Source: Rhodothermales bacterium (GTDB taxonomy: Bacteria > Bacteroidota > Rhodothermia > Rhodothermales > VXPQ01). Taken from it: DNA of 64,000 bases. A model generated the notes under the pieces. The model made no database searches, was not told the DNA's origin, and saw only the letters and a list, made by a program, of their open reading frames with translations. The position numbers and the translations under genes were made by a program. The stretch covers positions 8,483 through 72,482 of the forward strand of contig OZ244993.1 in the NCBI GenBank assembly GCA_965223485.1. Reading direction: 5' to 3'. Positions within the stretch are counted from its first letter, which is position 1; every line of letters begins with the position of its first letter. This document shows positions 1,159-43,767 of the stretch, piece after piece.

Positions 1159-4100
1159 TCAACGAGTGTACACCGTCGGAGAATTTTCCACGCTCGGCAG
1201 CGTTTGTGATTCGTTTTGCACGGCCCCTACATCCCTGCGGGGCGCATTCCACCGAACGGCCGCCGGGTCAGGCACACGACCCGGTCCTCTCGGAGAAAAT
1301 CGCAAAAACACCGCATCCCCCTCAGGCATACGATCCAGAGGCACGCGCACCCGGCTGCGCGTGTACACCAGCGTCTCGCGACGACCCAGCTCGCGGCCTT
1401 CCCCGTCGTACGCCAGCACCTCGCCCGCAAATGGACGATCCTGCGTCTCCAGCAAAAACGTCGCCGACACAGAGCCCACATACGATATCGACAACAGTGT
1501 GGCGCGTAGCTGCGACGCCCCTTCGCCAGGTACATAGACCCCCGGTACGCGCATCGTCACACGAGCCGTCCGGTCACCGGAAACCTCCTCGGGCATACGG
1601 TCCGAACGAACATACTGACGAGGCGAGGACACCACATCGAAGAATGCCGCGCACCCACGCTCATCCATATCCGACAACGCACCCTCCTTCACCCCATACC
1701 GGACCAGACCCTTCTCACCAGGCTGCAATACCACAACCGCCGGATGTATGTCCACCACCTGGGACAAATCGCCCAGATGCGATCCCGATGCATCCTCTAC
1801 TACTACCTCCCGGCCATTCTCCGTCGCCTCCGTATACCCGAAACGGGCCGACACCGATACCTCCAATGGCACCAGCGACGGGTTCGACAACTCGAACACG
1901 CCGTGAGGCTTCTCCTCGGTCAAAAACGCAACGTCCGGGTAGATGCTAAGACTCTGCTCCTCCGTCAAGCCGGCGGGAACCTCCCGCGACGTGCTGAAGC
2001 GAACCCCTCCGGGGCCTATCGTGATCACACGCTGCGCGGGAACGACCGTCACTTCGACCTCCACCGAGTGCGTCTCTTCGCGCTCGCCCGAACGAAGAAC
2101 GATGTCCATAGCGCCCGCATACCGGCCCGAAGGCGCGTCCGTAAGGTCCAGCTCGCCTCCGAAGCGAAGAAGGCGGCAGGCGCCCTCCGTAAGCGTCGCC
2201 TCCGTATACAGCCCGCCTATCGCCTGAGAAGATAACTGCTCGCACGACTCCGCATACGACCAGGAAGGAGAAAGAACGAGCGAAGACGGCTCGGCAGCGT
2301 CCTCACGCTTCAGAAGAACCGGAGAGATAACCTCTATGGAAAGGTCCATCTCCCCGTTCTCGTCGAACGATGCGCCGCCGCCCGGCGAAAGCGTCATGCG
2401 CCCCGCATGGTACGGACCCGATACGCGCGTCGATATGCCATCGGTCAGCGGATCGAGCGACGCCTCGGTCTGTGACGACTGCACCCCGAAACGCAAGGAC
2501 GATGCGCTTACCGTTACGCCAAGAGCCGACGGATCGGAAGGCGCCCGCGAGGAAGACTCCGCTACGGCAGGCAAAGGATCGGCGGGAGGCTCTTCTGCGG
2601 GAGGCGAAACAGGATCCGGGGCAGGCGTCCGTATCCTGTCGAGCACCGTTACGGTAACGTCCTCTGTCACAGACTCCGCATTGTCGGCGCTTACCGTCAG
2701 CGTGTATTCGTACGTCTCGTCCTCGTCTACCGCGTCAGGTACAAGGAACATCGGGGAGGAAACGTCCGCAGCGCTGAGCAGCGCCGTGTCCGGCGTATCG
2801 CCCCGAGCCGCCCAGGCGTACGTATACTGCGGGTCATCGCCCGGAGCCCCCGATGCCGAGCAGTCGAACGCGATGTCTGCCGATCCCTCGTATACCGAAC
2901 CGGGATCCGCGCACACGAGCGCAAGCGCCTCCTTGTTCAGCACCGTTACGGTAACGTCCTCTGTCACAAACTCCGCATTGTCGGCGCTTACCGTCAGCGT
3001 GTATTCGTACGTCTCGTCCTCGTCTACCTCATCCGGTACGTAGAACATCGGGGAGGAAACGTCCACAGCGCTGAGCAGCGACGTATCCGGCGTATCGCCC
3101 CGAGCCGTCCAGGCGTACGTATACTGCGGATCATCGCCCGGAGCCCCGGACGCCGAGCAGTCGAACGCGAAGTCTTCCGAACCCTCGTATACCGAACCCG
3201 GATCCGCGCACACGAGCGCAAGCGCCCCCTTGTTCAGTACTTTCACTGTAACGTCGGTGCTGGCGGGATCCGCATTCTCCGCCGAGACGGTCAGCGTGTA
3301 CTCGTACGTCTCGTCCCCTGCCACTTCATCAGGCACGTAGAACGTCGGGGAGGAAACGTCCACAGCGCTGAGCAGCGACGTATCCGGCGTATCGCCCCGA
3401 GCCGTCCACACGTACGTATACTGCGGGTCGTCGCCCGGAGCCCCGGATGCCGAGCAGTCGAACGCGAAGTCCTCCGATCCTTCGTACACCGAACCCGGAT
3501 CCGCGCACGCGAGCGCAAGCGCACCCCGGTTCAAAACCGTCACGGTTACCTCTGCCGCAGCGTCTTCCGCATTCGCCGCCGATACCGTCAGCGTGTATTC
3601 GTACGTCTCGTCCTCGTCTACCTCCTCCGGTACGTAGAACATCGGGGAGGAAACGTCCACAGCGCTGAGCAGCGACGTATCCGGCGTATCGCCCCGAGGC
3701 TCCCAAACGTATGTATAGATAGAACCCCCGGGCGCGCCCGAAGCCGCGCAGTCCAAAGCGACGTCCTCCGAGCCTTCGTACACCGAACCGGGATCCGCAC
3801 ACGCCACCGCAAGCGCACCACGGTTCAAAACCGTCACCGTCACCTCTGCCGTCGCGGACTCCGCATTCTCCGCGCTCGCCGTAAGCAGATATTCGTACGT
3901 TGTCGTCGCATCTACCTCCTCCGGCACAGCAAACACCGGGGAAGCAATGTCCGCCCTGCTAAGCATATCCGTATTTGTCGTAGAGCTCCTGGCCGTCCAC
4001 TCATATTCGTAGGCGGAACCCGCCGGAGCACCGGACGCCGTGCAATCCAGAGCGAAGTCCGCCGATCCCTCGTATACCGAACCGGGGTCTGCGCACACGA

Positions 4101-7100: not shown

Positions 7101-10100
7101 TGTTCTTTACATGCACCGTATAGGACATTAAAAAAGGATCCGCATTGTCCGCCGATACCGTCATCGTATAATCGTACTTCTCATCCTCGGAAACTGCATC
7201 GGGAACCCGGAAGAAAGGCCGCTCGATGTCCGTGGCGCTCAAAAGAGAGATAGCGGTAATCGGAGTGCTTCCCCTGGCCGTCCAGCCGAATCCGTAGACA
7301 GCAGGATCCGGAGCATCTGTATATTGACAATGCGGAAACTGGAAATCTGGCGCCCCTTCATAGACTGTAAACACATAAAAACCACCGATAAAACTTCCGC
7401 ATGGAACGATATCCGGCTTCTCCAGCACCGTGACAGTCACATCTTCGGTGACGTCATCGATGCCGGGAGCCGACAGCGTCACCGTGTATTCGTAATCCTT
7501 ATTCGCACCGCCCGGCTCGTCGATATCGCCCGGCGGCGCGAACGTCGGTTGCAGAATAGTCGTACTGCTCAGGTCGTTCGTATTCGATGTACTGCCCCGA
7601 ACCGCCCACGAGTACGCAGCGCCCGTCGGCTCGTTCGCCACCGAACAGTCCAGCGTAATATCGGCCGCACCCTCGTAGACCTCGGAATCATTGCAGGTGA
7701 TGGAGGGAGGAGGCGCCGTATCCGTGTCGAGCACATACACCCCAACCTGCACCGAAACGTCGTCTGCGTTCGCGGCGCTCACGGTCAGCGTATACTCGTA
7801 CGCCTCGTCCTCGTCCACCGCATCCGGCACGTTAAACGTCGGAACTTCTATGTTCGCCGCGCTAAGCAGCGCCGTATCCGGCGTGCTGTTCAGAGCCGTC
7901 CATGCGAACGCGTAGGTGGTTATATGCGCGTAGGCGGGCGCACCTGCCCATCCGTGTTCGCAAATGCGTAATGGAAAATCCGGGCTGCCTTCGCCCCTGG
8001 ATATAGCAAAGAAGAATGCACGTCCTACTTCCAGACAATAGATATCCGGTTTCTCCAGCACGGTCACGATAACGTCCTCGCTGGCCTGCTCGACGCCTCC
8101 GGCCGTCATCGTCACGGTGTATTCGTAGTCCTTATTCGCACCGCCCGGCTCGTCGATATCCCCCGGCACCGAAAATGTGGGAGTAATGCCGTCCGTACCG
8201 CTCAACCGATCAGCAATATGGGTACCGGTCCACGCGTATGCAGCGTCCGTCGGCTCGTTCGTCACTGAACAGTCCAGCGTAAAATCAGCTGCACCCTCGT
8301 ATACCTCGGAATCATTGCAGGTGATAACAGGAACCAGCACACCCCTGTCCTCCACCGTCACCGTAACTTTGCGAGTGTAGTCGTCTGCATTCGCCGCGCT
8401 CACTGTCAGCGTATACTCGTACGTCTCGTCGCTCCCTACCGTATCCGGTACGTAAAACGTCGGAGTTTCTATGTTCGTCGCGCTAAGCAGGTGCGTATCG
8501 GGCGTGCTGCCCCGAGCCGTCCATGCGTACGTGTAGTTGGAACCGACAGGCGCACCTTGCCATCCTGATTCACAACCATGGTATAGTAGCGTATCCGGGT
8601 TACCTTCGAATACGTCGGATAGGACCCAACCTTCTTTACTGCAATAGATATCCGGTTTCTCCAGCACGGTCACGATAACGTCCTCGCTGGCCTGCTCGAC
8701 GCCGCCGGCCGTCATCGTCACGGTGTATTCGTAGTCCTTATTCGCACCGCCCGGCTCGTCGATATCGCCCGGCGGCGCGAACGTCGGTTGCAGAATAGTC
8801 GTACTGCTCAGGTCGTTCGTATTCGATGTACTGCCCCGAACCGCCCACGAGTACGCAGCGTCCGTCGGCTCGTTCGCCACCGAACAGTCCAACGTAATGT
8901 CCGCCGTCCCTTCATAGACCGGGTCGGGATGTGTACAGGCGAGCGAAGGCGGCGGCGGACCCGTGTCGCGCACATGCATTCTTATAAGATCTCTATCCAC
9001 GTCCGGGGGATCACTGGCTATCACCCAATATCGGTACTCGGTGTCCCCGTTCACGTTTTCCGGCACATCGAAGACGGGGCTGGAGATGTCCACAGCACTG
9101 AGGCGGCTCGTGTTCGCAGTACCCCCCGCAGCCGTCCAACTCCAGGTATATGTCCTCCCCGGCTCCGCCGTGAGGCGACATTGGATTGTAAAATCGGGAT
9201 CTCCTTCATCGACGTGGTAGATGGTCCCGGACCACACAGTTAAGAAATGATACTCGTTGTCCACTGTGTCGTGGGTGCAATCTACGTTCCACGATGCACC
9301 GTTCGTTGCGGCAATATCGCCAACCGCCTCGCCTCCGACGACCCTGACCGTGACCCTGCGCCTTGCCGTGCGGGGCGTCCCCGAAGCCTGCGACGTCATG
9401 CTCGCTATGTAATGGTACTCCTCGCCCGCACTGCCCGCAGGAGCCGTAAACAACGCCGACGACCTGTCCGTCGCATCCAGAAGCGACGTGCTCGCGCCCC
9501 AAAGACCCTCCCACTCCCACAATATCGACGCCCCGTCCTCGTCGTAGTCCATACGATGCGACAACGGATCCGCCCCCTCGCAATCGAGCGCGATCGTCTC
9601 GCCCTCCTCAACCGCTACCTCCAGCGGACAATACACGCTCGGACGACTGCCCGATACGTACACCTCCACCTCCCGCCACGACGAAAGACCCGTAGCGCGG
9701 GAGGTCGCCGTCAAGCGGTACCGGTAAAGAAACGTCGTCTCCCCCGAATAAAACGACTCCAGCGTCTCGTACGCCGGAGCCTCCGGAGCCACTACCGAGG
9801 GATTCGGAACATCCTCGGGCGTCAACCTCGGATTGTCCAGATAGTCCCGCGTCGTACTTCCCACAGGCTCCCACGAATACTCCAGGTGTTCCTCTCCCGA
9901 AGCGTCCCATGCATGACACTCGACCTGTCCCGTCTCGAGCTCCTCCAGAAAAACAGCCACGGGACACTCCAGACGAGGAGGCGTCCGCCAGGCAGGACCG
10001 GAAGACTCACCCGGGCGCGCTTCTCCTTCCGGACCGAATCCGAAAGGATCCGGCGTCTTCTCCCGAGGCGCGCAGCTTTCCCCGAACTCGCCGGGAACCG

Positions 10101-10320: not shown

Positions 10321-10364
10321 CGGATTGGCCTTACATGGCGATCGACTCTGAGATATCCAACGGT

Positions 10365-19097: not shown

Positions 19098-19150
19098 ACA
19101 TAGTCCTTAAAAAATAAGGCGCAAGACGTATTCCGGAGCCGATAGGGCAC

Positions 19151-19171
19151 AAAAAACCCATCCCTACGGGT
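19151..19171 (-). terminator. Putative intrinsic terminator/attenuator in the 5' leader of paralog 2
   Basis: Minus strand reads ACCCGT-AGGG-ATGGGT followed by TTTTT, ~55 nt before the start codon. Confidence 0.5.
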
Positions 19172-19233
19172 ATACCGGAAGCATTTTCGCACCTCAAAAT
19201 ACGCTGCATGCCACCTTTGTGGCACTTCCGAAT

Positions 19234-19265
19234 CAAATTTACTGTATGGGAAGATAAAAAATCAA
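19234..19265 (-). promoter_or_regulatory. Putative Bacteroidota-type promoter TTG-N21-TAAATTTG
   Basis: Matches the TAnnTTTG -7 box with TTG 21 nt upstream. Both boxes are conserved in the two copies while the spacer diverges. Confidence 0.55.
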
Positions 19266-19445
19266 GGGGTGTAAAATATAAACGTTAATATATAAATTGA
19301 TTGTCCGTTGCAAAAAATAAGGAACCGCAATCGGCGCCGTGTTTACGCCAAACCAGCTATAGCGGTTATGGGCATAGGAACGGTAGATGGCGTTGCAGAA
19401 GTTGCAATCGCCGTCAAACAGGATAACGGGGCGGGGATCGTTCAT
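19239..19445 (-). pseudogene. DCC-family (DUF393/YuxK-like) thiol-disulfide oxidoreductase relic with internal deletion
   Basis: MNDPRPVILFDGDCNFCNA (DxxCxxC motif) is joined directly to IYRSYAHNRYSWFG, which matches the C-terminal Y..A.NRY.WFG motif of the family. The middle of the protein is missing. Confidence 0.75.
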
Positions 19446-19489
19446 CGGATCGGCCTTAAATGGCGATCGACTCTGAGATATCCAACAGT

Positions 19490-28400: not shown

Positions 28401-29752
28401 ACGTCGATCGCAGGCTTGTTCAGCACGGTTATCCTGACATCGTCGCTGGCAAACAGGCTGTAAGGATCAGGCCCCCCCGGCGATGTCCAGATTGCTATCG
28501 TGTACTCGTAGATCTCGTCCGCATCCACCGAATCAGGTGCATCGAAAATTGCGTCATATCCCCTATGCCTCAGCTTTGGAGTCGAAGACGCATCTTGCGG
28601 CGGAGCAACCTGCTCGCCGAGACGCGACCATCTCAGCCATACGTTCACATTAAACGGCCCATTCCCATCGCAGTCCAACAAAAGGTCCTCCGCTCCCTCG
28701 TACACACTGTAGGGGCTATCGTCACAAGTGACGCCAGCCGAAGAATCCGCATCGCCAACCGCCTCGCCTCCGCTGACCCTGACCGTCACTCTTCTGCGCG
28801 CCGTGCGGGGCGTCCCCGAAGCCTGCGACGTCATGCTCGCTATGTAATGGTACTCCTCGCCCGCACTGCCGGCAGGAGCCGTAAACAGCGCAGACGACAG
28901 GTCCGTCGCATCCAGAAGCGACGTGCTCGCACCCCAAAGACCCTCCCACTCCCACAATATCGACGCCCCGTCCTCGTCGTAGTCCATACGATGCGACAAC
29001 GGATCCGCCCCCTCGCAATCGAGCGAAACCGTCTCGCCCTCCTCAACCGCTACCTCCAGGGGACAATACACGCTCGGACGACTGCCCGATACGTACACCT
29101 CCACTTCCCGCCACGACGAAAGACCCGTAGCACGAGACGTCGCCGTCAAGCGGTACCGGTAAAGAAACGTCGTCTCCCCCGAATAAAACGACTCCAGCGT
29201 CTCGTACGCCGGAATCTCCGGAGCCACTACCGACGGGTTCGGCGCATCCTCGGGTATCAAACGAGGATTGTCCAGGTAGTCCCGCGTCGTACTTCCTGCA
29301 GGCTCCCACGAATATTCGAGATACTCCTCTCCCGAAGCGTCCCATGCATGACACTCGACCTGTCCCGTCTCGAGCTCCTCCAGAAAAATAGCCGCGGGAC
29401 ACTCCAGACGAGGAGGCGTCCGCCAGGCAGGACCGGAAGGCTCGCCCGGGCGCGCTTCTGCTTCCGGACCGAATCCGAAAGGATCCGGCGTCTTCTCCCG
29501 AGGCGCGCAGCTTTCCCCGAACTCGTCGGGAACCGTAAAAGGATCGCACTCCCGCACAACGGGCGCCTTCGCCGATTCCTCCGCAACGCCGCCCTTTACC
29601 GGAAAACCCTCTTCCCGGATAACCTGACCCTGCGCCGAAGAAACGCAGAGCAGCCCCGCAACGGCAAGCACGCACGCCAGGCGCCGAAACGCGATGGCGT
29701 TGCAGAAACTGCGATCGCCGTCAAACAGGATAACGGGGCGGGGATCGTTCAT
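19490..29752 (-). CDS. Giant secreted Ig/PKD-like repeat protein, paralog 3 (longest)
   Basis: ORF 19490-29914. Likely start is the ATG at 29752 (MNDPRPV...). Same architecture, roughly 28 repeats. Confidence 0.88.
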   Translation of the reverse strand: MNDPRPVILFDGDRSFCNAIAFRRLACVLAVAGLLCVSSAQGQVIREEGFPVKGGVAEESAKAPVVRECDPFTVPDEFGESCAPREKTPDPFGFGPEAEARPGEPSGPAWRTPPRLECPAAIFLEELETGQVECHAWDASGEEYLEYSWEPAGSTTRDYLDNPRLIPEDAPNPSVVAPEIPAYETLESFYSGETTFLYRYRLTATSRATGLSSWREVEVYVSGSRPSVYCPLEVAVEEGETVSLDCEGADPLSHRMDYDEDGASILWEWEGLWGASTSLLDATDLSSALFTAPAGSAGEEYHYIASMTSQASGTPRTARRRVTVRVSGGEAVGDADSSAGVTCDDSPYSVYEGAEDLLLDCDGNGPFNVNVWLRWSRLGEQVAPPQDASSTPKLRHRGYDAIFDAPDSVDADEIYEYTIAIWTSPGGPDPYSLFASDDVRITVLNKPAIDVDCAGDPYEVDEGDADFDLDCTVSGAPGDDPDYTWSWSPTDNLTGRNTATPTFDAPDDVDRNTTWTYTVTASAENADDGAAEVRVTVLDTDTAPPPSITCSDAEAYEGTGNFTLDCSVANEPTGATYAWAVRGSTSNTNDLSSTTILQPTFAPPGDIDEVDGANKDYEYTVTMTAGGVEQASEDVMVTVLEKPDIYCSAPRRVVIVFTLHESTREFPLRFCPYGVWTGAPGAGAVYAYAWTALSSLGTANTDLLSAANIEVPTFYVPDEVESDLVIGTYSYYSYMLTVSAENADDASVQIQIKAPLSLTCADSEVYEGADDITLDCSVTNAPSDAAYSWTGTDVADRLSGTDGITPTFSAPGDIDEPDEADKDYYYTVTMTVGGVEQASEDVTVTVLEKPDIYCPSVPGMLSHFLTTLGLVEGSRDYPLRACASGWEGGPVGYTYAWTARNGTPDTALLSAADIEVPTFDVPDAVDEDERYSYTLTVSAANADDAVAWVDLIVWDIDITVMCESSYEVYEGSADIELECEASGAPRGSSYTWSWSPNTRLTDHDTGTPTFAVPGSVEQDTTYTYAVTATAENADDETANVTVTVLDTDTAPPPSITCNDSEVYEGAAGFTLDCTVTNAPSDAAYSWTGTDVADRLTDTSSLTPTFAVPVSVSANTDYDYTVTLSAAGVEQASEDVTVTVLNKPAIDVDCAGNPYEVYEGSGYTTLDCSASGAPSGSAYDYVWTARGSPPDNWHIQRLSATDISSPTFRAPPFITRNVTYEYRLTVSAENAESATEEVTVTVLDTGLPGEMVCNGTYFERYAGSDDIELSCEFSSRPVGSGVFRWLWARWSADGFPHTISASGWPPGVPRPQGLTGTGYGSRTFRMPATVNSPTTYKYTLGVWRGRCPGGCAPLTLDLYASQDITIRVLPRPAIAVTCADPDPVYEGSADIELECSASGAPGDDPQYTWSWSPTTRLENHDTETPTFDVPYDVPQNTTYTYTVTASAENAEDGRAEVTVTVLHTDAPRPFVTCNDTSVYEGADDITLDCSVTNAPSDAAYSWTGTDVANRLSGADGYAPTFTPPDNVDADTDYDYTVTLSASGAADVTEDVTVTVLKRPVITVTCADPGSVYEGAADFAFACSASGAPAGSIYTYVWEPRGATPDLSLLSNTDDPSPTFAVPEEVDEDETYEYLLTVSAENADPASADVTVKVLNKGALSVACATPSPVYEGSEDFALDCAASGAPAGSAYAYEWTAQGGGDTSRLSSTTVEKPTFEVPEEVDSDETYEYTLTVSADNAESATEDVTVKVLNKKTLDVACATPSPVYEGSEDFALDCAASGAPGGSTYEYEWTASNGTANTARLSAADIASPTFAVPEEVDEDETYEYTLTVSAENAESATAEVTVKVLNLGSIALVCASPPLVYEGSADFALDCSISGDTGDNVDYTYEWTAIGSTTNTDLLSAADIASPTFYVPDALEETTTYEYLLTASAENAESASAEVTVTVLNRGALAVICAAPGSVYEGSADIAFDCSASGAPAGSAYEYAWTAIGSTTNTDLLSGADIASPTFYVPDEVAEDETYEYTLTVSAENADPASADVTVTVLNRGALSVVCVDPPSVYEGSEDFALDCSASGVPAGSDYAYEWTARGSTANTARLSATEIASPTFYVPEQVDEDETYEYTLTVSAANADPASADVTVTVLNKKALYVACATPSPVHEGSADFALDCAASGAPGGSEYEYAWMARGSTTNTDLLVAGADGPTPTFDVPEEVDEDETYEYLLTVSAENAESATAEVTVKVLNLGSIALVCASPPLVYEGSADFALDCSISGDTGDNVDYAYAWTARGSTTNTSRLSAADIASPMFYVPEEVDATTTYEYLLTASAANAESATAEVTVTVLNRGALALACADPGSVYEGSADIAFDCSASGAPAGSAYEYAWTAIGSTTNTDLLSGADIASPTFYVPDEVAEDETYEYLLTVSAANAESGSAEVTVTVLNKGALAVICADPGSVYEGSENFALDCSASGAPAGSAYEYAWTAIGSTTNTDLLSGADIASPTFAVPDALDETTTYEYLLTVSAANAESASAEVTVTVLNRGALAVICANPGSVYEGSENFALDCSASGAPAGSAYEYAWTAIGATTNTDLLSGVDIASPTFYVPDALDETTTYEYLLTVSAENAEDASADVTVTVLNVGALRVVCAMPSPVYEGSEDIAFDCSASGAPGDDPEYTYAWTARGDTPDTALLSAADGPTPTFDVPDEVDETTRYEYLLTVSAENAEDATAEVTVTVLNSGALAVICADPGSVYEGSADIAFDCSASGAPGDNPQYTYAWAARGDTPDTALLSAGDTASPTFYVPEEVEEDETYEYLLTVSAENVEDATAEVTVTVLNKGALALACADPGSVYEGSEDVTFDCSASGAPGDDPQYTYAWTARGDTPDTSLLSAGDTASPTFHVPEEVEEDETYEYLLTVSAANAKDAAADVTVTVLDRIRTPAPDPVSPPAEEPPADPLPAVAESSSRAPSDPSALGVTVSASSLRFGVQSSQTEASLDPLTDQISTRVSGPYHAGRMTLSPGGGASFDENGEMDLSIEVIAPVLLKREGAAGPSSLVLSPSWSFAESCEQLSSQAIGGLYTEATLTEGACRLLRFGGELDLTDAPSGRYAGAMDIVLRSGEREETHSVEVEVTVVPSQRVITIGPGGVRFSTSREVPAGLTEDQSLSIYPDVAFLTEGKPNGAFELSNPSLIPLEVSVSARFGYTEATENGREVVIESPDGSRLGDLSKVVDIHPGVLVLMPGEKGLVRYGVKEGALAAMSEKGYAAFFDVVSSPRQYVRSDRMPEEVTGERTARVTMRVPGVYVPGEGASQLRARLLSLSYGVSMSATFLLETQDRPFAGEVVAYDGQGRELGRRETLVYTRSRVRVPLDRMPEEEVVFLRFAPWGSSRVPEPTSVEWNAPGRDIGAAGEKEGRTTPKSALQ

Positions 29753-29796
29753 CGGATCGGCCTTACATGGCGATCGACTCTGAGATATCCAACGGT

Positions 29797-32700
29797 TCAT
29801 TGCAATGCGCTCTTCGGGATTGTTCTCCGTTCTTTGTCCCCGGCGGCGCCTATGTCTCTTCCCGGCGCATTCCACGGAATGTTCACCGGATCGGGCACGC
29901 GGCCCGGCCCCCAAGGCGCAAATCGTAAAAACACCACCTCTTCCTCAGGCATGCGGTCCAGAGGCACGCGCACCCGGCTGCGCGTGTACACCAGCGTCTC
30001 CCGGCGGCCCAGCTCGCGGCCCTGCCCGTCGTACGCCACCACCTCGCCCGCAAAAGGACGATCCTGCGTCTCCAGCAAAAACGTCGCGGACATGGAAACC
30101 CCATACGACAACGACAACAGCGTCGCGCGTAGCTGAGACGCCCCTTCCCCGGGTACGTACACCCCCGGAACGCGCATCGTCACGCGAGCCGTCCTCTCTC
30201 CCGTAACCTCCTCAGGCATACGGTCCGAACGCACGTACTGACGAGGAGATGACACCACATCGAAAAACGCCGCATAGCCCTTCTCCGCCATAGCCGCAAG
30301 CGCTCCCTCCTGCACCCCGTAACGGACAAGGCCCTTCTCACCAGGCTGCAATACCACAACCGCCGGATGTATGTCCACCACCTGGGACAAATCGCCCAGG
30401 CGTGAGTCCGAAGCATCCTCTACCACCACCTCCCGGCCGTCCCTTGTCGCCTCCGTATACCCGAAACGCGCCGACACCGATACCTCCAATGGCACCAGCG
30501 ACGGGTTCGACAACTCGAACACGCCGTGAGGCTTCCCTTCCGTCAAAAACGCAACGTCGGGGTAGATGCTCAGGTTCTGCTCCTCCGTCAAGCCCGCAGC
30601 AAGCTCCCGCGACGTGCTGAAGCGAACCCCTCCGGGACCTATCGTGATCACGCGCTGCGAAGGAACGACCGTCACTTCGACCTCGACCGAGTGCGTCTCT
30701 TCGCTCTCGCCCGAACGAAGAACGATGTCCATACTCCCCGCATACCGCCCCGAAGGCGCGCCCGTAAGGTCCAGTTCGCCTCCGAAGCGAAGAAGGCGGC
30801 AGGCGCCCTCCGCAAGCGTCGCCTCCGTATACAGGCTGCCTATCGCCTGAGAAGAAAGCTGCTCGCACGACTCCGCAAAGGACCAGGAAGGAGAAAGAAC
30901 GAGCGAAGACGGCTCGGCAGCGCCCTCACGCTTCAGAAGAACCGGAGAGACAACCTCTATGGACAGGTCCATCTCCCCGTTCTCGTCGAACGATGCGCCG
31001 CCGCCCGGCGAAAGCGTCATACGGCCTGCATGGTACGGACCCGATACGCGCGTCGATATCTGATCCGTCATCGGATCGAGCGACGCCCGCGTCTGCGCCG
31101 ACTGCACCCCGAAACGCAAGGACGATGCGCTTACCGTTACGCCAAGGGCCGTCGGATCCGAAGGCGCCCGTGAGGAAGACCCCGCTACGGGAGGCTCTTC
31201 TGCGGGAGGCGAAACAGGATCCGGGGCAGGCGTCCGTATCCTGTCGAGCACCGTTACGGTTACCTCTGCCGCAGCGTCTTCCGCATTCGCCGCCGATACC
31301 GTCAGCGTGTACTCGTACGTCTCGTCTTCTTCCACCTCTTCCGGCACATAGAACGTCGGAGAAGGTATGTCCACAGCGCTGAGCAGCGACGTATCCGGCG
31401 TATCGCCCCGAGCCGTCCAGGCGTACGTATACTGCGGGTCGTCGCCCGGAGCCCCGGACGCCGAGCAGTCGAACGCAATGTCCGCAGAGCCCTCGTACAC
31501 CGGAGAAGGCGTCGCGCACGCAATGCTAAGCGCCCCCTTGTTCAGCACCGTCACCGAAACCTCTGCCGCAGCGTCTTCCGCGTTGTCGGCGCTCGCCGTA
31601 AGCAGGTATTCGTAGGTCTCGTCCTCGTCCACTTCGTCCGGTACCGCGAACGTCGGAGTAGGGCCGTCTGTGCCACTGATTAGTAGATCCGTGTTTGCCG
31701 TGCTGCCCCGAGCCGTCCAGGCGTACGTATACTGCGGATCATCGCCCGGAGCCCCGGACGCCGAGCAGTCGAACGCGATGTCTGCCGATCCCTCGTATAC
31801 CGAACCGGGGTCCGCGCACACGAGCGCAAGCGCCTCCTTGTTCAGCACCGTTACGGTAACGTCCTCTGTCACAAACTCCGCATTGTCGGCGCTTACCGTC
31901 AGCGTGTATTCGTAGGTCTCGTCCTCGTCTACCTCATCCGGTACGTAGAACATCGGGGAGGAAACGTCCACAGCGCTGAGCAGCGACGTATCCGGCGTAT
32001 CGCCCCGAGCCGTCCAGGCGTACGTATACTGCGGATCATCGCCCGGAGCCCCGGACGCCGAGCAGTCGAACGCGAAGTCCGCAGAGCCCTCGTACACCGG
32101 AGAAGGCGTCGCGCACGCAATGCTAAGCGCCCCCTTGTTCAGCACCGTCACCGAAACCTCTGCCGCAGCGTCTTCCGCGTTGTCGGCGCTCGCCGTAAGC
32201 AGGTATTCGTAGGTCTCGTCCTCGTCCACTTCGTCCGGTACCGCGAACGTCGGGGACGCAATGTCCGCAGCGCTGAGCAGAGCCGTATCCGGCGTATCGC
32301 CCCGAGCCGTCCAGGCGTACGTATACTGCGGATCATCGCCCGGAGCCCCGGACGCCGAGCAGTCGAACGCAATGTCTGCCGAGCCTTCGTATACAGAACC
32401 GGGATCCGCGCACACGAGCGCAAGCGCCTCCTTGTTCAGCACCGTTACGGTAACGTCCTCTGTCACAAACTCCGCATTGTCGGCGCTTACCGTCAGCGTG
32501 TATTCGTACGTCTCGTCCTCGTCTACCTCATCCGGTACGTAGAACATCGGGGAGGAAACGTCCACAGCGCTGAGCAGCGACGTATCCGGCGTATCCCCCC
32601 GAGCCGTCCAGGCGTACGTATACTGCGGGTCGTCGCCCGGAGCCCCGGACACCGAGCAGTCGAACGTGATATCTTCCGATCCCTCGTACACCAAGGGAGG

Positions 32701-35700
32701 CGATGCGCAAACGAGCGCAATGGATCCGAGGTTAAGCACCTTCACCGAAACCTCTGCCGCAGCGTCTTCCGCGTTGTCGGCGCTCGCCGTAAGCAGGTAT
32801 TCGTAGGTCTCGTCCTCGTCCACTTCGTCCGGTACCGCGAACGTCGGGGACGCAATGTCCGCAGCGCTGAGCAGAGCCGTATCCGGCGTATCGCCCCGAG
32901 CCGTCCAGGCGTACGTATACTGCGGATCATCGCCCGGAGCCCCGGATGCCGAGCAGTCGAACGCAATGTCTGCCGAGCCTTCGTATACAGAACCGGGGTC
33001 CGCGCACACGAGCGCAAGCGCCTCCTTGTTCAGCACCGTTACGGTAACGTCCTCTGTCACAGACTCCGCATTGTCGGCGCTTACCGTCAGCGTGTATTCG
33101 TACGTCTCGTCCTCGTCTACCTCATCCGGTACGTAGAACATCGGGGAGGAAACGTCCACAGCGCTGAGCAGCGACGTATCCGGCGTATCCCCCCGAGCCG
33201 TCCAGGCGTACGTATACTGCGGGTCGTCGCCCGGAGCCCCGGACGCCGAGCAGTCGAACGCAATGTCCGCAGAGCCCTCGTACACCGGAGAAGGCGTCGC
33301 GCACGCAATGCTAAGCGCCCCCTTGTTCAGCACCGTCACCGAAACCTCTGCCGCAGCGTCTTCCGCGTTGTCGGCGCTCGCCGTAAGCAGGTATTCGTAG
33401 GTCTCGTCCTCGTCCACTTCGTCCGGTACCGCGAACGTCGGGGACGCAATGTCCGCAGCGCTGAGCAGAGCCGTATCCGGCGTATCGCCCCGAGCCGTCC
33501 AGGCGTACGTATACTGCGGATCATCGCCCGGAGCCCCGGATGCCGAGCAGTCGAACGCAATGTCTGCCGAGCCTTCGTATACAGAACCGGGGTCCGCGCA
33601 CACGAGCGCAAGCGCCTCCTTGTTCAGCACCGTTACGGTAACGTCCTCTGTCACAGACTCCGCATTGTCGGCGCTTACCGTCAGCGTGTATTCGTACGTC
33701 TCGTCCTCGTCTACCTCATCCGGTACGTAGAACATCGGGGAGGAAACGTCCACAGCGCTGAGCAGCGACGTATCCGGCGTATCGCCCCGAGCCGTCCAGG
33801 CGTACGTATACTGCGGATCATCGCCCGGAGCCCCGGATGCCGAGCAGTCGAACGCAATGTCCGCAGAGCCCTCGTACACCGGAGAAGGCGTCGCGCACGC
33901 AATGCTAAGCGCCCCCTTGTTCAGCACCGTCACCGAAACCTCTGCCGCAGCGTCTTCCGCATTCTCAGTACGCGCCGTCAACAGGTACTCGTACGTTGTG
34001 GTCTCGTCCAACGCATCCGGCACATAGAACGTCGGAGAAGATATGTCCACGGCGCTCAATCGGGACGTGTTCGGCGTCGCGCCTATGGCTGCCCACTCGT
34101 ACGCATAATCGACGTCCCCCGTATCCCCTGAGACCGAGCAGTCCAAAGCGAAGTCTTCCGAACCCTCGTACACCAAGGGAGGCGATGCGCAAACGAGCGC
34201 AATGGATCCGAGGTTAAGCACCTTCACCGTCACTTCCGCCGTCGCGGACTCCGCATTATCCGCCGAGACCGTCAACAGGTACTCGTACGTTTCGTCCTCG
34301 TCCACTTCCTCCGGCACGTCGAATGTCGGGGCGGGGCCATCCACGCCGCTGATTAGAAGGTCCGTGTTTGCCGTACTTCCCCGGGCTGTCCAGACGTATG
34401 TATACCCGGGAGCGCCCGAAGCCGTGCAGTCCAGGGCGAAATCCGCAGACCCCTCGTACACCGGAGAAGGCGTCGCGCACGCAACGTCCAATGTCTTCTT
34501 GTTCAGCACCTGCACGGTAACGTCGGCGCTGCCGGGATCCGCATTCTCCGCCGAGACCGTCAACAGGTACTCGTACGTTTCGTCCTCGTCCACTTCCTCC
34601 GGCACGTCGAATGTCGGGGTGGGGCCATCCACGCCGCTGATTAGAAGGTCCGTGTTTGCCGTACTTCCCCGGGCTGTCCAGACGTATGTATACCCGGGAG
34701 CGCCCGAAGCCGTGCAGTCCAGGGCGAAATCCGCAGATCCCTCGTACACCGGAGAAGGCGTCGCGCACGCAACGTCCAATGTCTTCTTGTTCAGCACCGT
34801 CACGGTAACGTCGGCGCTGCCGGGATCCGCATTCTCCGCCGAAACGGTTAGCCTGTACTCGTACGTCTCGTCCCCTGCAACTTCATCCGGTACATAGAAC
34901 GTCGGCTTCCCAACGGTCGTACTACTCAACCTGCTCGTGTCGCCGCCGCCCCGGGCTGTCCATGCGTACACATCATAGGGGAAACCCGAAGGGGCGCCCG
35001 AAGCCGCGCAGTCCAGGGCGAAATCCTCCGATCCCTCGTACACCGGAGAAGGCGTCGCGCACGCAACGTCCAATGCCTTCTTGTTCAGCACCGTCACGGT
35101 AACGTCCGCCGAACCGGACTCCGCATTCTCCGCCGAGACGGTCAGCGTGTACTCGTACGTTTCGTCCTTCTCCACTTCCTCCGGCACGGCAAACGTCGTA
35201 GAAGCAATGTCCGTTGCACTGAGCAGTGCCGTATCCGGCGTATCGCCCCCAGCCCTCCATTCATACACGTAAGCGGAACCCGCAGGCGCGCCTGACGCCG
35301 CGCAATCGAACGTGATATCTTCCGACCCCTCATACACCGAACCCGGATCCGCGCACGTAACGGTGATAACCGGCCTCTTCAACACGGTTACGGTAACATC
35401 TTCGGTAACGTCAGCAGCCCCGCCGGCCGACAGCGTCACCGTGTAGTCGTAGTCCGTGTCCGCATCTACGTTGTCCGGCGGCGTGAACGTCGGGGCGTAA
35501 CCGTCCGTGCCGCTCAACCGATTCGCGACATCCGTGCCCGCCCACGAATACGCCGCGTCCGAAGGCGCGTTCGTCACCGAACAATCCAGCGTAATATCGG
35601 CCGCACCCTCGTATACCGCGGTATCGTTACACGTAACGACAGGACGCGGCGCATCCGTGTGCAGCACCGTCACTGTAACCTCGGCCCTGCCGTCTTCCGC

Positions 35701-38571
35701 ATTCTCGGCGCTCGCCGTTACCGTATAGGCATACGTCGTGTCTTGCGGTACATCGTAAGGCACGTCGAATGTCGGCGTTGCCGTATCGTGATCCGTAAGA
35801 CGATCGGTCGGAGACCATAACCACGTATACGAAGAGCCGCTCGGAGCGCCCGACGCCTCGCACTCCAGTTCAATGTCGGCCGAGCCCTCGTACACGGGAT
35901 CGGGATCCGCGCACGTAACAGCGATTGCAGGCCTTGGCAGTACTCTTATCGTAATATCCTGGCTCGCGTACAAGTCTACCGTTAGCGGCGCACATCCCCC
36001 CGGACACCGGCCTCTCCAAACCCCTATCGTGTACTTGTAGGTCGTAGCGCTATTCACTGTTGCAGGCATGCGGAACGTCCCCGACGCCAAACCGGTAACG
36101 GTCAATCCCTGCGGCCTCGGCCACCCCGTCGGGTAGCCCCCGCCGCTGGAGATGGTATAGGGAAGGCCATCGGCGCTCCAGGCCGCCCACAACCACCGGA
36201 AGACGCCAACCGGCCTGCTCGATCTGCAACTCAATTCAATGTCGTCCGATCCGGCGTACCTTTCAAAATAGGTTCCGTTACAAACCATCTCGCCGGGAAG
36301 ACCCCTGTCGAGCACCGTCACCGTCACATCTTCCCTTGCCGGTTCCGCGTTCTCCGCCGAGACGGTCAGCCTGTACTCGTACGTCACGTCTCTCGTAATA
36401 AAGGGCGGCGCTCTGAAGGTAGGCGAAGAAATGTCCGTCGCGCTAAGGCGCCGAATGTGCAATTCGTTCGGCGGACCCTCCCGCGCCGTCCAGACATAGT
36501 CGTAGTCGGAACCCGAAGGCGCGCCCGACGCCGAGCAGTCCAGCGTGGTATACCCCGAACCCTCGTACACCTCGTACGGATTGCCGGCGCAATCTACGTC
36601 GATCGCAGGCTTGTTCAGCACGGTTACCGTAACGTCTTCGCTGGCCTGCTCGACGCCGCCGGCCGACAGCGTCACCGTGTATTCGTAGTCCGTGTTTGCA
36701 CTTACACTAACCGGCACGGCAAATGTGGGGGTAATGCCGTCCGTACCGCTCAACCGATTACCAATATCCGTGCCTGTCCACGAGTACGTAGCGCCCGTCG
36801 GCTCGTTCGCCACCGAACAGTCCAGCGTGAAATTGCCCGTGCCTTCGTACGCCTCCGCATCCGAACAGGTAATGGAGGGAGGAGGCGCCGTATCCGTGTC
36901 GAGCACCGTCACCCTAACCTCGGCAGCGCCGTCGTCTGCATTCTCCGCGCTCGCCGTTACCGTGTACGTATAGGTAGTTTCCTGATCTACATTATCAGGC
37001 ACAGCGAACGTGGGCGTAGCCGTATTGTGACCCGTCAGATTGTCGGTCGGAGACCATGACCACGTATAGTCCGGATCGCCCCCCGGCGCACCCGACGCAG
37101 AGCAGTCAAACTCAATATCGTCCGCGCCCTCGTCCACATCATCAGTATCCTCGCACGTGACCGTGATCGCAGGCTTGTTCAACACCGTTACCGTGAAATC
37201 GGCGCTGGCGCGCAGGGTGTACTCAGGAGTGCCATCGTACCGCGGAGTATACAATGCTACCGTGTATGCATACATCTCGTCCTGATTCACCAAATCAGGT
37301 ACGTCGAAGGTTATTCTGTAATGCGAAGAAGGAGCGTCGATATTGTATGGATCCTTCAATCCGGGCGTGGGCGCTCCCGAAGCAGGTGGGGGAATCTGCT
37401 CGCCGAGACGCGACCATCTTACCCAATTGGTGCGTGCCGGCTGATCATGAATCGAGCAATTAATTCCAAGATCGCTTGCTCCCTCGTACACCTCGTAGGG
37501 ACTATCCGAACAAGTGATGCCGGGATCAAGCATATACCCCGAAACTTCTTCTTCGCCGACGACCCTGACCGTGACCCTGCGCCTTGCCGTGCGGGGCACG
37601 CCCGAAGCCTGCGACGTCATGCTCGCTATGTAATGGTACTCCTCGCCCGCACTGCCGGCAGGAGCCGTAAACAAAGGCGACGACAGGTCCGTCGCTGCGA
37701 GAGGAGCCATGCTCGTTCCCCATAGACCCTCCCACTCCCACAATATCGACGCCCCGTCCTCGTCGTAGTCCATACGATGCGACAGCGGATCCGCCCCCTC
37801 GCAATCGAGCGCGATCGTCTCGCCCTCCTCAACCGATACCTCCAGCGGACAATACACGCTCGGACGACTGCCCGATACGTACACCTCCACTTCCCGCCAC
37901 GACGAAAGACCCGTAGCGCGGGACGTCGCCGTCAAACGGTACCGGTAAAGAAACGTCGTCTCCCCCGAATAAAACGACTCCAGCGTCTCGTACGCCGGAG
38001 CCTCCGGAGCCACTACCGAGGGATTCGGAACATCCTCGGGCATCAATCGGGGATTGTCCAGATAGTCCCGCGTCGTACTTCCCACAGGCTCCCACGAATA
38101 CTCCAGATGTTCCTCTCCCGAAGCGTCCCATGCATGACACTCGACCTGTCCTGTCTCGAGCTCCTCCAGAAAAATAGCCACAGGACACTCCAGACGAGGA
38201 GGCGTCCGCCAGGCAGGACCGGAAGGCTCGCCCGGGCGCGCTTCTCCTTCCGGACCGAACCCGAAAGGATCCGGCGTCTTCTCCCGAGGCGCGCAGCTTT
38301 CCCCGAACTCGCCGGGAACCGTAAAAGGATCGCATTCCTCCCGCACAACGGGCGCCCAGGCCGATTCCTCCGGAACGCCGCCCTTTACCGGAAAACCCTC
38401 TTCCCGGATAACCTGGCCCTGCGCCGAAGAAACGCAGAGCAGCCCCGCAACGGCAAACACGCATGCCAGGCGCCCAGCCGAAGCGCCGGAACCATCGAAA
38501 ACACCCGAATGCGAAACAACCGGCAGAGGACCGAAGCCGACATCATCGCGCATTGCACGATCGCGAACCAT
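29797..38571 (-). CDS. Giant secreted Ig/PKD-like repeat protein, paralog 4
   Basis: 2924 aa ORF with AAGGA RBS. N-terminus nearly identical to paralog 2. Confidence 0.9.
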   Translation of the reverse strand: MVRDRAMRDDVGFGPLPVVSHSGVFDGSGASAGRLACVFAVAGLLCVSSAQGQVIREEGFPVKGGVPEESAWAPVVREECDPFTVPGEFGESCAPREKTPDPFGFGPEGEARPGEPSGPAWRTPPRLECPVAIFLEELETGQVECHAWDASGEEHLEYSWEPVGSTTRDYLDNPRLMPEDVPNPSVVAPEAPAYETLESFYSGETTFLYRYRLTATSRATGLSSWREVEVYVSGSRPSVYCPLEVSVEEGETIALDCEGADPLSHRMDYDEDGASILWEWEGLWGTSMAPLAATDLSSPLFTAPAGSAGEEYHYIASMTSQASGVPRTARRRVTVRVVGEEEVSGYMLDPGITCSDSPYEVYEGASDLGINCSIHDQPARTNWVRWSRLGEQIPPPASGAPTPGLKDPYNIDAPSSHYRITFDVPDLVNQDEMYAYTVALYTPRYDGTPEYTLRASADFTVTVLNKPAITVTCEDTDDVDEGADDIEFDCSASGAPGGDPDYTWSWSPTDNLTGHNTATPTFAVPDNVDQETTYTYTVTASAENADDGAAEVRVTVLDTDTAPPPSITCSDAEAYEGTGNFTLDCSVANEPTGATYSWTGTDIGNRLSGTDGITPTFAVPVSVSANTDYEYTVTLSAGGVEQASEDVTVTVLNKPAIDVDCAGNPYEVYEGSGYTTLDCSASGAPSGSDYDYVWTAREGPPNELHIRRLSATDISSPTFRAPPFITRDVTYEYRLTVSAENAEPAREDVTVTVLDRGLPGEMVCNGTYFERYAGSDDIELSCRSSRPVGVFRWLWAAWSADGLPYTISSGGGYPTGWPRPQGLTVTGLASGTFRMPATVNSATTYKYTIGVWRGRCPGGCAPLTVDLYASQDITIRVLPRPAIAVTCADPDPVYEGSADIELECEASGAPSGSSYTWLWSPTDRLTDHDTATPTFDVPYDVPQDTTYAYTVTASAENAEDGRAEVTVTVLHTDAPRPVVTCNDTAVYEGAADITLDCSVTNAPSDAAYSWAGTDVANRLSGTDGYAPTFTPPDNVDADTDYDYTVTLSAGGAADVTEDVTVTVLKRPVITVTCADPGSVYEGSEDITFDCAASGAPAGSAYVYEWRAGGDTPDTALLSATDIASTTFAVPEEVEKDETYEYTLTVSAENAESGSADVTVTVLNKKALDVACATPSPVYEGSEDFALDCAASGAPSGFPYDVYAWTARGGGDTSRLSSTTVGKPTFYVPDEVAGDETYEYRLTVSAENADPGSADVTVTVLNKKTLDVACATPSPVYEGSADFALDCTASGAPGYTYVWTARGSTANTDLLISGVDGPTPTFDVPEEVDEDETYEYLLTVSAENADPGSADVTVQVLNKKTLDVACATPSPVYEGSADFALDCTASGAPGYTYVWTARGSTANTDLLISGVDGPAPTFDVPEEVDEDETYEYLLTVSADNAESATAEVTVKVLNLGSIALVCASPPLVYEGSEDFALDCSVSGDTGDVDYAYEWAAIGATPNTSRLSAVDISSPTFYVPDALDETTTYEYLLTARTENAEDAAAEVSVTVLNKGALSIACATPSPVYEGSADIAFDCSASGAPGDDPQYTYAWTARGDTPDTSLLSAVDVSSPMFYVPDEVDEDETYEYTLTVSADNAESVTEDVTVTVLNKEALALVCADPGSVYEGSADIAFDCSASGAPGDDPQYTYAWTARGDTPDTALLSAADIASPTFAVPDEVDEDETYEYLLTASADNAEDAAAEVSVTVLNKGALSIACATPSPVYEGSADIAFDCSASGAPGDDPQYTYAWTARGDTPDTSLLSAVDVSSPMFYVPDEVDEDETYEYTLTVSADNAESVTEDVTVTVLNKEALALVCADPGSVYEGSADIAFDCSASGAPGDDPQYTYAWTARGDTPDTALLSAADIASPTFAVPDEVDEDETYEYLLTASADNAEDAAAEVSVKVLNLGSIALVCASPPLVYEGSEDITFDCSVSGAPGDDPQYTYAWTARGDTPDTSLLSAVDVSSPMFYVPDEVDEDETYEYTLTVSADNAEFVTEDVTVTVLNKEALALVCADPGSVYEGSADIAFDCSASGAPGDDPQYTYAWTARGDTPDTALLSAADIASPTFAVPDEVDEDETYEYLLTASADNAEDAAAEVSVTVLNKGALSIACATPSPVYEGSADFAFDCSASGAPGDDPQYTYAWTARGDTPDTSLLSAVDVSSPMFYVPDEVDEDETYEYTLTVSADNAEFVTEDVTVTVLNKEALALVCADPGSVYEGSADIAFDCSASGAPGDDPQYTYAWTARGSTANTDLLISGTDGPTPTFAVPDEVDEDETYEYLLTASADNAEDAAAEVSVTVLNKGALSIACATPSPVYEGSADIAFDCSASGAPGDDPQYTYAWTARGDTPDTSLLSAVDIPSPTFYVPEEVEEDETYEYTLTVSAANAEDAAAEVTVTVLDRIRTPAPDPVSPPAEEPPVAGSSSRAPSDPTALGVTVSASSLRFGVQSAQTRASLDPMTDQISTRVSGPYHAGRMTLSPGGGASFDENGEMDLSIEVVSPVLLKREGAAEPSSLVLSPSWSFAESCEQLSSQAIGSLYTEATLAEGACRLLRFGGELDLTGAPSGRYAGSMDIVLRSGESEETHSVEVEVTVVPSQRVITIGPGGVRFSTSRELAAGLTEEQNLSIYPDVAFLTEGKPHGVFELSNPSLVPLEVSVSARFGYTEATRDGREVVVEDASDSRLGDLSQVVDIHPAVVVLQPGEKGLVRYGVQEGALAAMAEKGYAAFFDVVSSPRQYVRSDRMPEEVTGERTARVTMRVPGVYVPGEGASQLRATLLSLSYGVSMSATFLLETQDRPFAGEVVAYDGQGRELGRRETLVYTRSRVRVPLDRMPEEEVVFLRFAPWGPGRVPDPVNIPWNAPGRDIGAAGDKERRTIPKSALQ
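31300..33960 (-). repeat. 594-bp (two-domain) near-perfect tandem repeat inside paralog 4
   Basis: Near-identical blocks recur every 594 bp; shadow ORFs start at 31929/32523/33117/33711 and 32148/32742/33336. Confidence 0.9.
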
Positions 38572-38624
38572 ACATAGTCCTTAAAAAATAAGGCGCAAGA
38601 CGTATTCCGGAGCCGATAGGGCAC

Positions 38625-38645
38625 AAAAAACCCATCCCTACGGGT
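38625..38645 (-). terminator. Putative intrinsic terminator/attenuator in the 5' leader of paralog 4
   Basis: ACCCGT-AGGG-ATGGGT-TTTTT on the minus strand, identical to 19151-19171. Confidence 0.5.
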
Positions 38646-38707
38646 ATACCGGAAGCATTTTCGCACCTCAAAATACGCTGCATGCCACCTTTGTGGCATT
38701 TCCGAAT

Positions 38708-38739: not shown

Positions 38740-38804
38740 GGGTCTCAAAATATAATAATTAATATATCAGTCTATTATTTATTATAAAGAATAAACCATG
38801 CTCG

Positions 38805-43753: not shown

Positions 43754-43767
43754 GCTTTGCTCCTCGC

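Follow-up and report, generated by a model that had tools for sequence, protein, structure and literature searches.

In the textbook picture, chaperone-usher pili are polymers built of small subunits that are each delivered by a separate chaperone, and among these subunits PapH and FimI act as chaperone-capped terminators. Archaic (sigma) pili, such as Csu of Acinetobacter with its CsuA/B, CsuC, CsuD and CsuE, a tip adhesin of two domains, are the candidate closest relatives of the system described here. One report places archaic chaperone-usher systems across a wide range of phyla (PMC9452303). The subject of this work is an array of four giant genes, named A, B, C and D, found in a 64,000-nucleotide stretch of DNA of a Rhodothermales bacterium (contig OZ244993.1, positions 8,483 to 72,482). 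We call this whole stretch the window and its genome G000. Coordinates refer to the window unless given as genome positions.

We found that the four proteins end in a C-terminal module which derives from a chaperone-usher pilus operon, and that a protein with the predicted fold of an usher is encoded elsewhere in the genome. The most probable reading, to which we give a probability of about 0.6, is that each giant is a single-chain fibre with a chaperone of its own, and that its export and anchoring run via this cryptic usher.

Architecture of the four giant proteins

The array lies on the minus strand at 1159-38571 and contains, as a preliminary description of this DNA had claimed, four co-oriented open reading frames (ORFs), of 2910-3474 amino acids (aa) and with no internal stops. 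Gene A (1159-10320) is open up to 10443 (3094 aa) with a likely start at the ATG of 10320, and gene C (19490-29752) is open up to 29914 (3474 aa) with a likely start at the ATG of 29752, both starts being chosen by the positions of Met. Gene B (10365-19097, 2910 aa) has its own leader and promoter region, and gene D (29797-38571, 2924 aa) carries recent two-unit duplications in its stalk. The mature proteins have masses of 302-356 kDa, an isoelectric point (pI) of 4.05 and an Asp plus Glu content of 16.3-17.0%. All four ORFs represent real genes, which belong to a lineage-specific family and encode acidic secreted fibres.

In terms of domains, a Pfam scan over the whole of proteins A and C, listed at E<=0.01, assigns the repeats to K319L-like_PKD (PF22352). 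Protein A matches with E 2.9e-90 and 296.8 bits in 14 stretches, and protein C with E 1.1e-125 and 410.4 bits in 17 stretches, both above the gathering cut-off of 27 bits. With a hidden Markov model (HMM) of our own, based on 50 stalk units, we count 24, 23, 28 and 23 units back to back in A, B, C and D. When run on the frames of the genome, the HMM finds 23, 23, 27 and 23 units, 96 in total.

The N-proximal part of each protein is made of divergent, reshuffled unit types, and the final 11-14 units are of one homogeneous stalk type. At the DNA level, Tandem Repeats Finder reports in each gene a tandem array of 294-297 bp with approximately 11-14 copies. These arrays, all on the minus strand, lie at 2642-6003 in gene A (294 bp, 11.4 copies), 11815-15610 in gene B (294 bp, 12.9 copies), 20951-24921 in gene C (294 bp, 13.5 copies) and 31247-35259 in gene D (297 bp, 13.6 copies).

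As for the N-terminal end, the mature protein begins with a stretch rich in Pro, Gly and Glu, and weak PKD-like units come next. The supposedly constant N-terminus consists largely of two such units, which score 5.5-11.4 bits with our HMM, and a protein-atlas search with this region gave PKD-like leads only, all below 0.9.

Most of this layout had been proposed in the preliminary description. Its assignment of the repeats to PKD (K319L-like) folds agrees with the PF22352 matches in A and C, its acidic homogeneous stalk with the pI and the single type of the last 11-14 units, and its plan of constant ends, variable middle and variable-length stalk proved real in the HMM units and in unit clustering. 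Two of its statements need adjustment. The ends, called near-identical, are very similar, with only 90.3-96.8% identity across the six pairs for the N-terminal ~310 aa and 85.3-94.2% for the C-terminal 484-495 aa. The two Cys said to lie 17 residues apart in each repeat are present as exactly two Cys in 86 of the 96 units, with a spacing of exactly 17 in only 60 of them and of 16-18 in 83.

The C-terminal module and the usher-like protein

The repeat HMM leaves the last 481-492 aa of A-D unmatched. The preliminary description took this part for a plain constant end, and so missed a fused pilin-like and chaperone-like module; it also missed the matching usher, encoded elsewhere in the genome. 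By sequence comparison, the module occupies 1162-2646 in gene A (495 aa, a two-part tail), 19493-20962 in gene C (490 aa) and 29800-31251 in gene D (484 aa), in all cases on the minus strand. In gene B, on the same strand, residues 32-196 of the tail (11232-11726, coordinates calculated from tail residues) correspond to a predicted DUF4402-type pilin-like domain with an extra strand. Residues 222-460 (10440-11156) correspond, by homology and model, to a homologue of PapD-like chaperones that has two lobes and is fused in cis.

The 484-aa tail of B has no Pfam match at E<=10 and no NCBIfam match at E<=0.01, and a search against 1.84 billion representative proteins gave just 90 matches at E<=1e-3. 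Fused forms among these relatives reach 2880 aa. Secreted stand-alone proteins of ~260 aa align to tail residues ~222-450 with E down to 4.6e-17, and secreted stand-alone proteins of ~150-205 aa align to residues ~32-177 with E down to 5.2e-10. We scanned ten of the stand-alone relatives. Two of the ~260-aa proteins give weak matches to PapD_N (E 0.1 and 0.18), and two of the ~150-205-aa proteins give weak matches to DUF4402 (E 0.001 and 0.03), all below the cut-off. The profile of the tail matches a stand-alone protein having a weak PapD_N match (E 6.7e-4) with 97.8% probability and E 8.7e-13 over 216 columns, and a true DUF4402 member (27.1 bits, cut-off 25.2) with 84.9% probability and E 6.4e-6. 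These alignments show homology, at the sequence level, between the tail and both the pilin-like and the chaperone-like stand-alone proteins.

The AlphaFold2 model of the tail is all-beta, with a predicted local distance difference test (pLDDT) score of 86.8 and a predicted template modelling (TM) score of 0.69. Among its Foldseek matches are the chaperones CsuC, FimC, PapD, CfaA and FaeE, with a target TM of 0.48-0.54 over 238-260 columns, as well as donor-strand-complemented CfaB pilin fusions.

The ordinary explanation would be that these are giant adhesins of a described class, either SprB-like of the type IX secretion system (T9SS), RTX/LapA-like of the type I system (T1SS), or autotransporter/intimin-like, with an end that is merely unannotated. 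Giant adhesins typically show an acidic stalk and long chains of Ig-like repeats, and T9SS cargo in this genome reaches 4604 aa. We nevertheless regard this explanation as improbable. No Por_Secre_tail, RTX, autotransporter or intimin barrel family appears among the Pfam listings for A and C at E<=0.01, and the tail of B, while lacking Pfam and NCBIfam matches, resembles the pilin-like and chaperone-like proteins of usher operons.

The alignment of stand-alone and fused forms reveals a difference in the pilin-like domain. The stand-alone proteins have a short stretch of alternating hydrophobic residues at the N-terminus, past the signal peptide, and stop at the strand aligned with tail residues 168-180. 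The fused forms have no such N-terminal extension and, after a turn of two residues, continue into an extra strand at residues 183-196, modelled with pLDDT 90-98. We read this as the closing strand supplied in cis, a pairing which we infer from the secondary-structure (DSSP) string of the model.

This strand bears on whether the giants could be true pilus subunits, joined head to tail by donor-strand exchange, with the N-terminus of one subunit displacing the cis chaperone of the next. Such a join would suit paralogues in which both ends are conserved and the middle varies, and the system does derive from a polymerising pilus operon. On the other side, the fused forms lack the N-terminal extension and the extra strand would fill the groove permanently, while the Pro/Gly/Glu-rich stretch and weak PKD-like units of the mature N-terminus offer no alternating hydrophobic strand. 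Polymerisation of this kind thus seems improbable, though slightly less so than the described adhesin classes.

In related lineages, the operons of the stand-alone homologues contain several pilin-like genes and one chaperone-like gene, followed by a gene of 755-826 aa. Our genome has a homologue of this last gene at genome 160259-162781, outside the window and approximately 150 kb away from it, with its start 12 bp past the stop of a giant paralogue. Its product of 840 aa matches neither a Pfam nor an NCBIfam family. The model of this protein (pLDDT 73.9) opens with a signal helix and an N-terminal domain. Six long strands come next, then an insert of six strands that has the size of a plug, then 18-19 further long strands by a count on the DSSP list, and finally beta domains at the C-terminus. 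In the Foldseek listing, each of the best 17 rows is a FimD or PapC entry, with E down to 5.7e-26, and the comparison with pore-only structures gives a target TM of 0.62-0.64 with a root mean square deviation of 6.5-6.9. The usher layout of N-terminal domain, 24-strand barrel with the plug after strand 6 and C-terminal domains is thus found at the level of the fold only, and the model shows the protein to be a FimD/PapC-type usher by predicted fold.

A second copy of the usher, 78-80% identical, lies at genome 1776747-1779330 (-) in locus L055, 4 kb downstream of a giant paralogue, and is split into frames of 533 and 407 aa.

In terms of possible substrates, the stand-alone chaperone-like form is widespread, with matches in 51 of 401 genomes sampled from the phylum, ours included. 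Within our genome we found no separate PapD-like chaperone gene: all 20 matches of the chaperone-like query lie inside giant frames, and so do all 20 of the stand-alone pilin-like query, with no others. Since both queries match only inside the 20 giants, these are the sole candidate substrates found for the usher.

As for the distribution of the tail, in a collection of species genomes all 17 loci found were in records titled Rhodothermales metagenome-assembled genomes. The tail is present in 15 of 41 relatives, our genome included, and in all 11 other genomes of the same genus. Among complete genomes, G000 has 22 tail matches (20 nearly full length), G402 has 14, G406 has 17 (many of them partial, with a tandem run of copies), G400 and G404 have 2 each, and G407 and G409 have 1 each, that of G409 being a remnant.

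The usher was found in 9 of the 11 other genomes of the genus. It lies at most 5 kb downstream of the tail of a giant, on the same strand, in our genome and in 8 of the 9 other usher-bearing genomes; in the one-copy species G407 the gap from giant to usher is 6 bp. The order of giant and then usher is conserved.

Some genes around the usher and its relatives were also recorded. Directly after our usher lies a MotA/ExbB-family gene (L054:9469-10356 (-), genome 159469-160356), and a gene of the same family stands two genes after the usher homologue of a distant relative (L045:4396-5049 (-)). The chaperone-usher route is not known to draw on an energy source at the outer membrane, which makes this neighbour curious. 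The gene after our usher (295 aa) shows no likeness to the one that follows the L045 usher (284 aa). Two genes after our usher there is a T5orf172/MUG113-domain gene (L054:8874-9518 (-), genome 158874-159518). In one relative (L046), a 1533-aa gene with a TPR match alone comes after a stand-alone pilin/chaperone operon, and behind it lies a gene (15502-17574 (+)) whose 690-aa product has a FliF C-terminal domain and a FliG domain.

The twenty-copy family and the surroundings of the array

The genome is a single contig of 3,245,449 bp with no N. The tail of B matches it at 22 places, and the 20 nearly full-length copies, with 77-100% identity, sit in open frames of 1337-3568 aa. The 25 repeat-bearing frames of at least 600 aa total 186,753 bp, which is 5.75% of the genome. 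The diversified repertoire that had been suggested, rather than a single adhesin, is therefore confirmed as a genome-wide family of 20 members. Three giants are apparently split into two frames or pieces, at genome 1783380-1794826, 1798525-1809887 and 1441974-1453417.

For a comparison across the family, units were clustered at 72% identity. All members follow a common plan, with an N-terminal class, then a middle cassette, then a stalk run of 4-15 units. The middle cassettes combine few recurrent unit types with many singletons, in an order that varies between members. The stalk type accounts for 232 of 460 units.

Several signs of exchange between copies were observed. In three of the four window genes, the nearest paralogue of the N-end differs from that of the C-end. 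Divergence at four-fold degenerate sites is 0.06-0.13 for the N-end, 0.10-0.22 for the C-end and 0.33-0.42 for the last six stalk units, a figure that would be inflated if stalk units in the same position are not true counterparts. In gene D, stalk units two apart are 98.7-99.3% identical in DNA, while the median identity of units within a gene is 72-82% in A-D. A BLAST screen for tracts of at least 98% identity missed these within-gene duplicates, which were revealed by direct comparison of units. Taken together, these signs would fit duplication, unit gain and gene conversion. The idea that recombination maintains the repertoire thus stands in part, on the paralogue mismatch, the contrast at silent sites, the duplicates in D and a junction that recurs in five genes.

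This junction concerns the starts of genes A and C, which lie 44 bp past the stop of the preceding gene. In both, the first 20 codons come from the beginning of another small gene and are joined in frame to the signal peptide, and the fused remnants with their junctions occupy 10261-10364 and 29693-29796. The junction between small gene and signal peptide is identical in five family members, and the fragment is found at nine places in the genome. After gene C, sequence comparison places a 44-bp spacer at 19381-19489 (-), together with the beginning of a truncated copy of this small gene, an ORF of 68 codons. The Cys motif of the small gene presumably resembles that of DCC/DUF393 thiol-disulfide oxidoreductases, which are a candidate only.

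Genes B and D, on the other hand, begin with the same leader peptide, and their upstream regions are 94.4% identical over 196 nucleotides (nt). The leader and promoter region of B lies at 19098-19300 (-, 203 nt) and that of D at 38572-38767 (-). The 203 nt of B also have a 100% identical copy at genome 171895-172097, upstream of a paralogue 144 kb off. Judged from these junctions, the array is a two-gene unit that was apparently duplicated. A terminator-like hairpin with a T run stands at 19156-19171 (-), within the leader common to B and D and ~60 nt upstream of the start codon of B. The common leader folds no better than shuffled sequences (z = -1.25), and an Rfam scan of the window gave nothing at the gathering level.

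An array of this kind could also be an artefact of assembly, in which strain alleles of one gene were placed side by side. Such repeats are hard to assemble, and the public Logan contigs on the region measure only 165-459 bp, with some joints leading to other places; in the listed joints, the short sides are of 20-38 letters in all cases but one. Against this, the genome is one 3.25-Mb contig without N, and A-D differ in length, number of units and order of units. Moreover, the array has three gene junctions of two kinds, sixteen further copies lie elsewhere in the genome, and many copies are also present in other complete genomes of the genus, with 14 matches for G402 and a tandem run for G406.

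The Logan contigs, which are too short for long-range order, were compared with window 10000-29999. Contigs from runs of three studies, one of which may be the source sample, cover all 30 bins to at least 97%, and the pieces across the B/C junction (18960-19224 and 19195-19421) show no differences in X1, X2 and X3. We consider an artefact very improbable, the least probable of the explanations discussed here.

Regarding other export routes, the T9SS domain Por_Secre_tail (PF18962) has 63 matches in the genome, 60 of them over the cut-off. None of the 63 falls in the 20 tail-bearing frames. Neither this domain nor a type-B T9SS tail was found in the tail of B at E<=10 or in the whole of A and C at E<=0.01. 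A frame of 706 aa at genome 112556-114676 (+) has four stalk-type PKD units and a Por_Secre_tail end, so the stalk unit is also used on cargo of another export route.

The surroundings of the array contain a few further ORFs. Just upstream, on the opposite strand, lie a 278-aa ORF without assignment (39680-40516) and a gene for a DUF6588 protein (40523-41626 (+), E 1e-36). At 41799-42602 (-), a 267-aa ORF matches only the phage integrase N-terminal SAM-like domain (E 4.8e-5) and, on this match, may be a truncated or divergent tyrosine recombinase. At 42716-43903 (-), 4 kb from the array, there is a PorV/PorQ-family ORF, a T9SS-type component (NCBIfam NF033709, 189 bits, cut-off 90). It directly follows a 754-aa ORF (43768-46032) and a SusC-like TonB-dependent receptor (46057-49422). 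The 754-aa ORF was considered as an usher for its size, and was rejected as it has no similarity to the L045 usher homologue.

Proposed export and comparison with known systems

The architecture of a giant runs from a Sec signal peptide through a conserved tip region, a reshuffled PKD/Ig cassette and a stalk of 11-14 near-uniform units to the C-terminal module. In our proposal, a giant would first be exported by Sec and fold in the periplasm. Its chaperone-like tail would then dock on the FimD/PapC-type usher, and the Ig chain would thread outward via the usher pore with the N-terminus leading. The tail, being covalently attached and bulky, could not be displaced and would stay periplasmic as stopper and anchor. 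The variable cassette would supply binding diversity, and the stalk would set the reach. Docking, the direction of threading, anchoring, an adhesive function and surface display of the giants are what we infer from this architecture.

The chief alternative is that the tail comes from a pilin-chaperone pair and the usher was abandoned, so that the tail now works as a folding aid, an anchor in the periplasm or outer membrane, or a binding module, with export by the T9SS through a signal of unrecognised type or by another system. We hold this to be unlikely, yet clearly the strongest of the competing explanations. It is favoured by the PorV/PorQ-family ORF near the array and the many T9SS cargo proteins of the genome, and by a pilin-like domain that seems to close itself and perhaps needs no assembly partner. 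G400 also keeps a 3319-aa giant with an intact tail, while no usher was found there by protein or profile search; the genes downstream of that giant encode a DinB-family protein and an AAA/TPR protein. Furthermore, our genome has one intact usher gene for 20 giants, which raises a problem of stoichiometry if each fibre permanently occupies an usher.

Three findings speak for a retained usher. The first is the giant-then-usher order in our genome and in 8 of the 9 other usher-bearing genomes of the genus, with gaps down to 6-12 bp. The second is that no other pilin-like or chaperone-like gene was found in our genome for the usher to serve. The third is that no T9SS tail was found in the tail of B, in A or C, or in the 20 tail-bearing frames.

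The PorV/PorQ-family ORF, the G400 locus and the single intact usher all weigh against export via the usher, as do several further points. In G402, the usher adjoins no giant. The docking module is C-terminal and leaves Sec last, so threading of the ~300-kDa chain would have to begin only after full export, or be set off by the conserved N-terminus. Several Foldseek matches of the tail model that rank above the pilus chaperones are eukaryotic ciliary proteins, presumably with ASH/MSP-type domains, which share the superfold; taken by itself, the fold is therefore unspecific and does not decide. The pairing of strand 183-196, being read from the DSSP string, sets a limit on the self-closed pilin.

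At the level of family models, PF00577 (Usher) has no match in our genome at E<=0.001, where an E. coli control was positive, and PF00345 was not found in the genome. PF14352 (DUF4402) has no match on the tail in the window at E<=10 and none of significance in the genome; the blank in the genome carries little weight, as the control genomes were likewise blank. A predicted complex of the N-terminal domain of the usher (36-172) with the tail (30-466), which scored 0.00 in two runs made without controls, counts for neither side.

Export and anchoring via the usher can be put in a fuller form, to which we give somewhat less than even odds. Here each giant would be an all-in-one chaperone-usher substrate, that is, a giant variable adhesin joined to a self-closed pilin and to a covalent chaperone which targets it to the usher and plugs it. 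The genome, a small one, would then hold twenty exchangeable copies, some 6% of its length, for monomeric fibres perhaps 100 nm long, and these would form a surface repertoire diversified as Ig units reshuffle between copies.

The most economical evolutionary account of the system has three steps. An ancestral pilin-chaperone-usher operon would come first. Its pilin and chaperone genes would then have been fused behind a PKD chain, compare the one-copy species with the usher 6 bp away. The substrate gene would finally have been amplified and diversified, up to the twenty copies of our genome.

If export via the usher is correct, the usher pathway can be rebuilt into a device for the export and anchoring of monomers, and a route for giant adhesins is added beside T1SS, T9SS and the type V system (T5SS). 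The lineage would then also contain divergent ushers, chaperones and DUF4402 pilins that current family models miss. The twenty-fold amplification, variable between species and with reshuffled binding units, is a candidate surface-variation system in an uncultured group.

As for the literature, in the library searched, the titles and first lines of abstracts listed describe no natural fused or self-complemented chaperone. They contain nothing relevant on Rhodothermales sponge symbionts with PKD domains. Our searches also found nothing on DUF4402, nor on chaperone-usher systems in Rhodothermales.

Giant adhesins such as the SprB-like ones of T9SS and the LapA/MpIBP-like ones of T1SS resemble our proteins in size, acidic stalk, Ig-like units and variable number of repeats. 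In the giants, by contrast, neither a T9SS tail nor an RTX region was found, and they end in pilin-like and chaperone-like domains.

The resemblance to chaperone-usher systems involves several components. The 840-aa usher has the predicted fold and domain order of FimD/PapC, and the tail has a two-lobed PapD-like chaperone fold, with CsuC among the best chaperone matches. The pilin-like Ig domain of the tail has stand-alone relatives with an N-terminal donor-like extension, as chaperone-usher pilins do, and the order of pilins, chaperone and usher in related lineages is that of chaperone-usher operons. Like two-domain tip adhesins, the giants place an N-terminal passenger before a C-terminal pilin domain.

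There are also differences. In chaperone-usher pili the chaperone is separate, whereas in the giants it is covalently fused to the subunit. As this subunit seems to close its own fold, no polymer is expected. Classical subunits have an incomplete Ig fold and an N-terminal donor extension, whereas the window proteins lack the extension and have the extra strand 183-196. The passenger consists of 23-28 Ig units, instead of the one receptor-binding domain of tip adhesins. Twenty substrate genes face one intact usher, and neither the window proteins nor the genome have a significant Pfam match to Usher, PapD_N or DUF4402.

Two more specific parallels concern the way in which the giants would be closed and anchored. 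In the engineered CfaB/CfaE donor-strand-complemented pilins (PDB 3f83-3f85), which rank among the top fold matches of the tail model, the groove is filled in cis by a strand placed behind the pilin domain. Those fusions are laboratory constructs, while the version in the giants appears, from alignment and model, to be natural and to be followed by a chaperone domain. In the chaperone-capped terminators (PapH/PapD, and FimI/FimC on FimD, PDB 9fxb/9fxs), the last subunit cannot be exchanged, and a last subunit of this kind, remaining at the usher together with its chaperone, would likewise anchor the fibre of the giants. The chaperone chain of the FimI-bound platform is among the fold matches of the tail model. 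In the PapH and FimI systems, unlike here, the chaperone is separate and the fibre polymeric. Taken together, these comparisons point to a variant of chaperone-usher export that is as yet undescribed.

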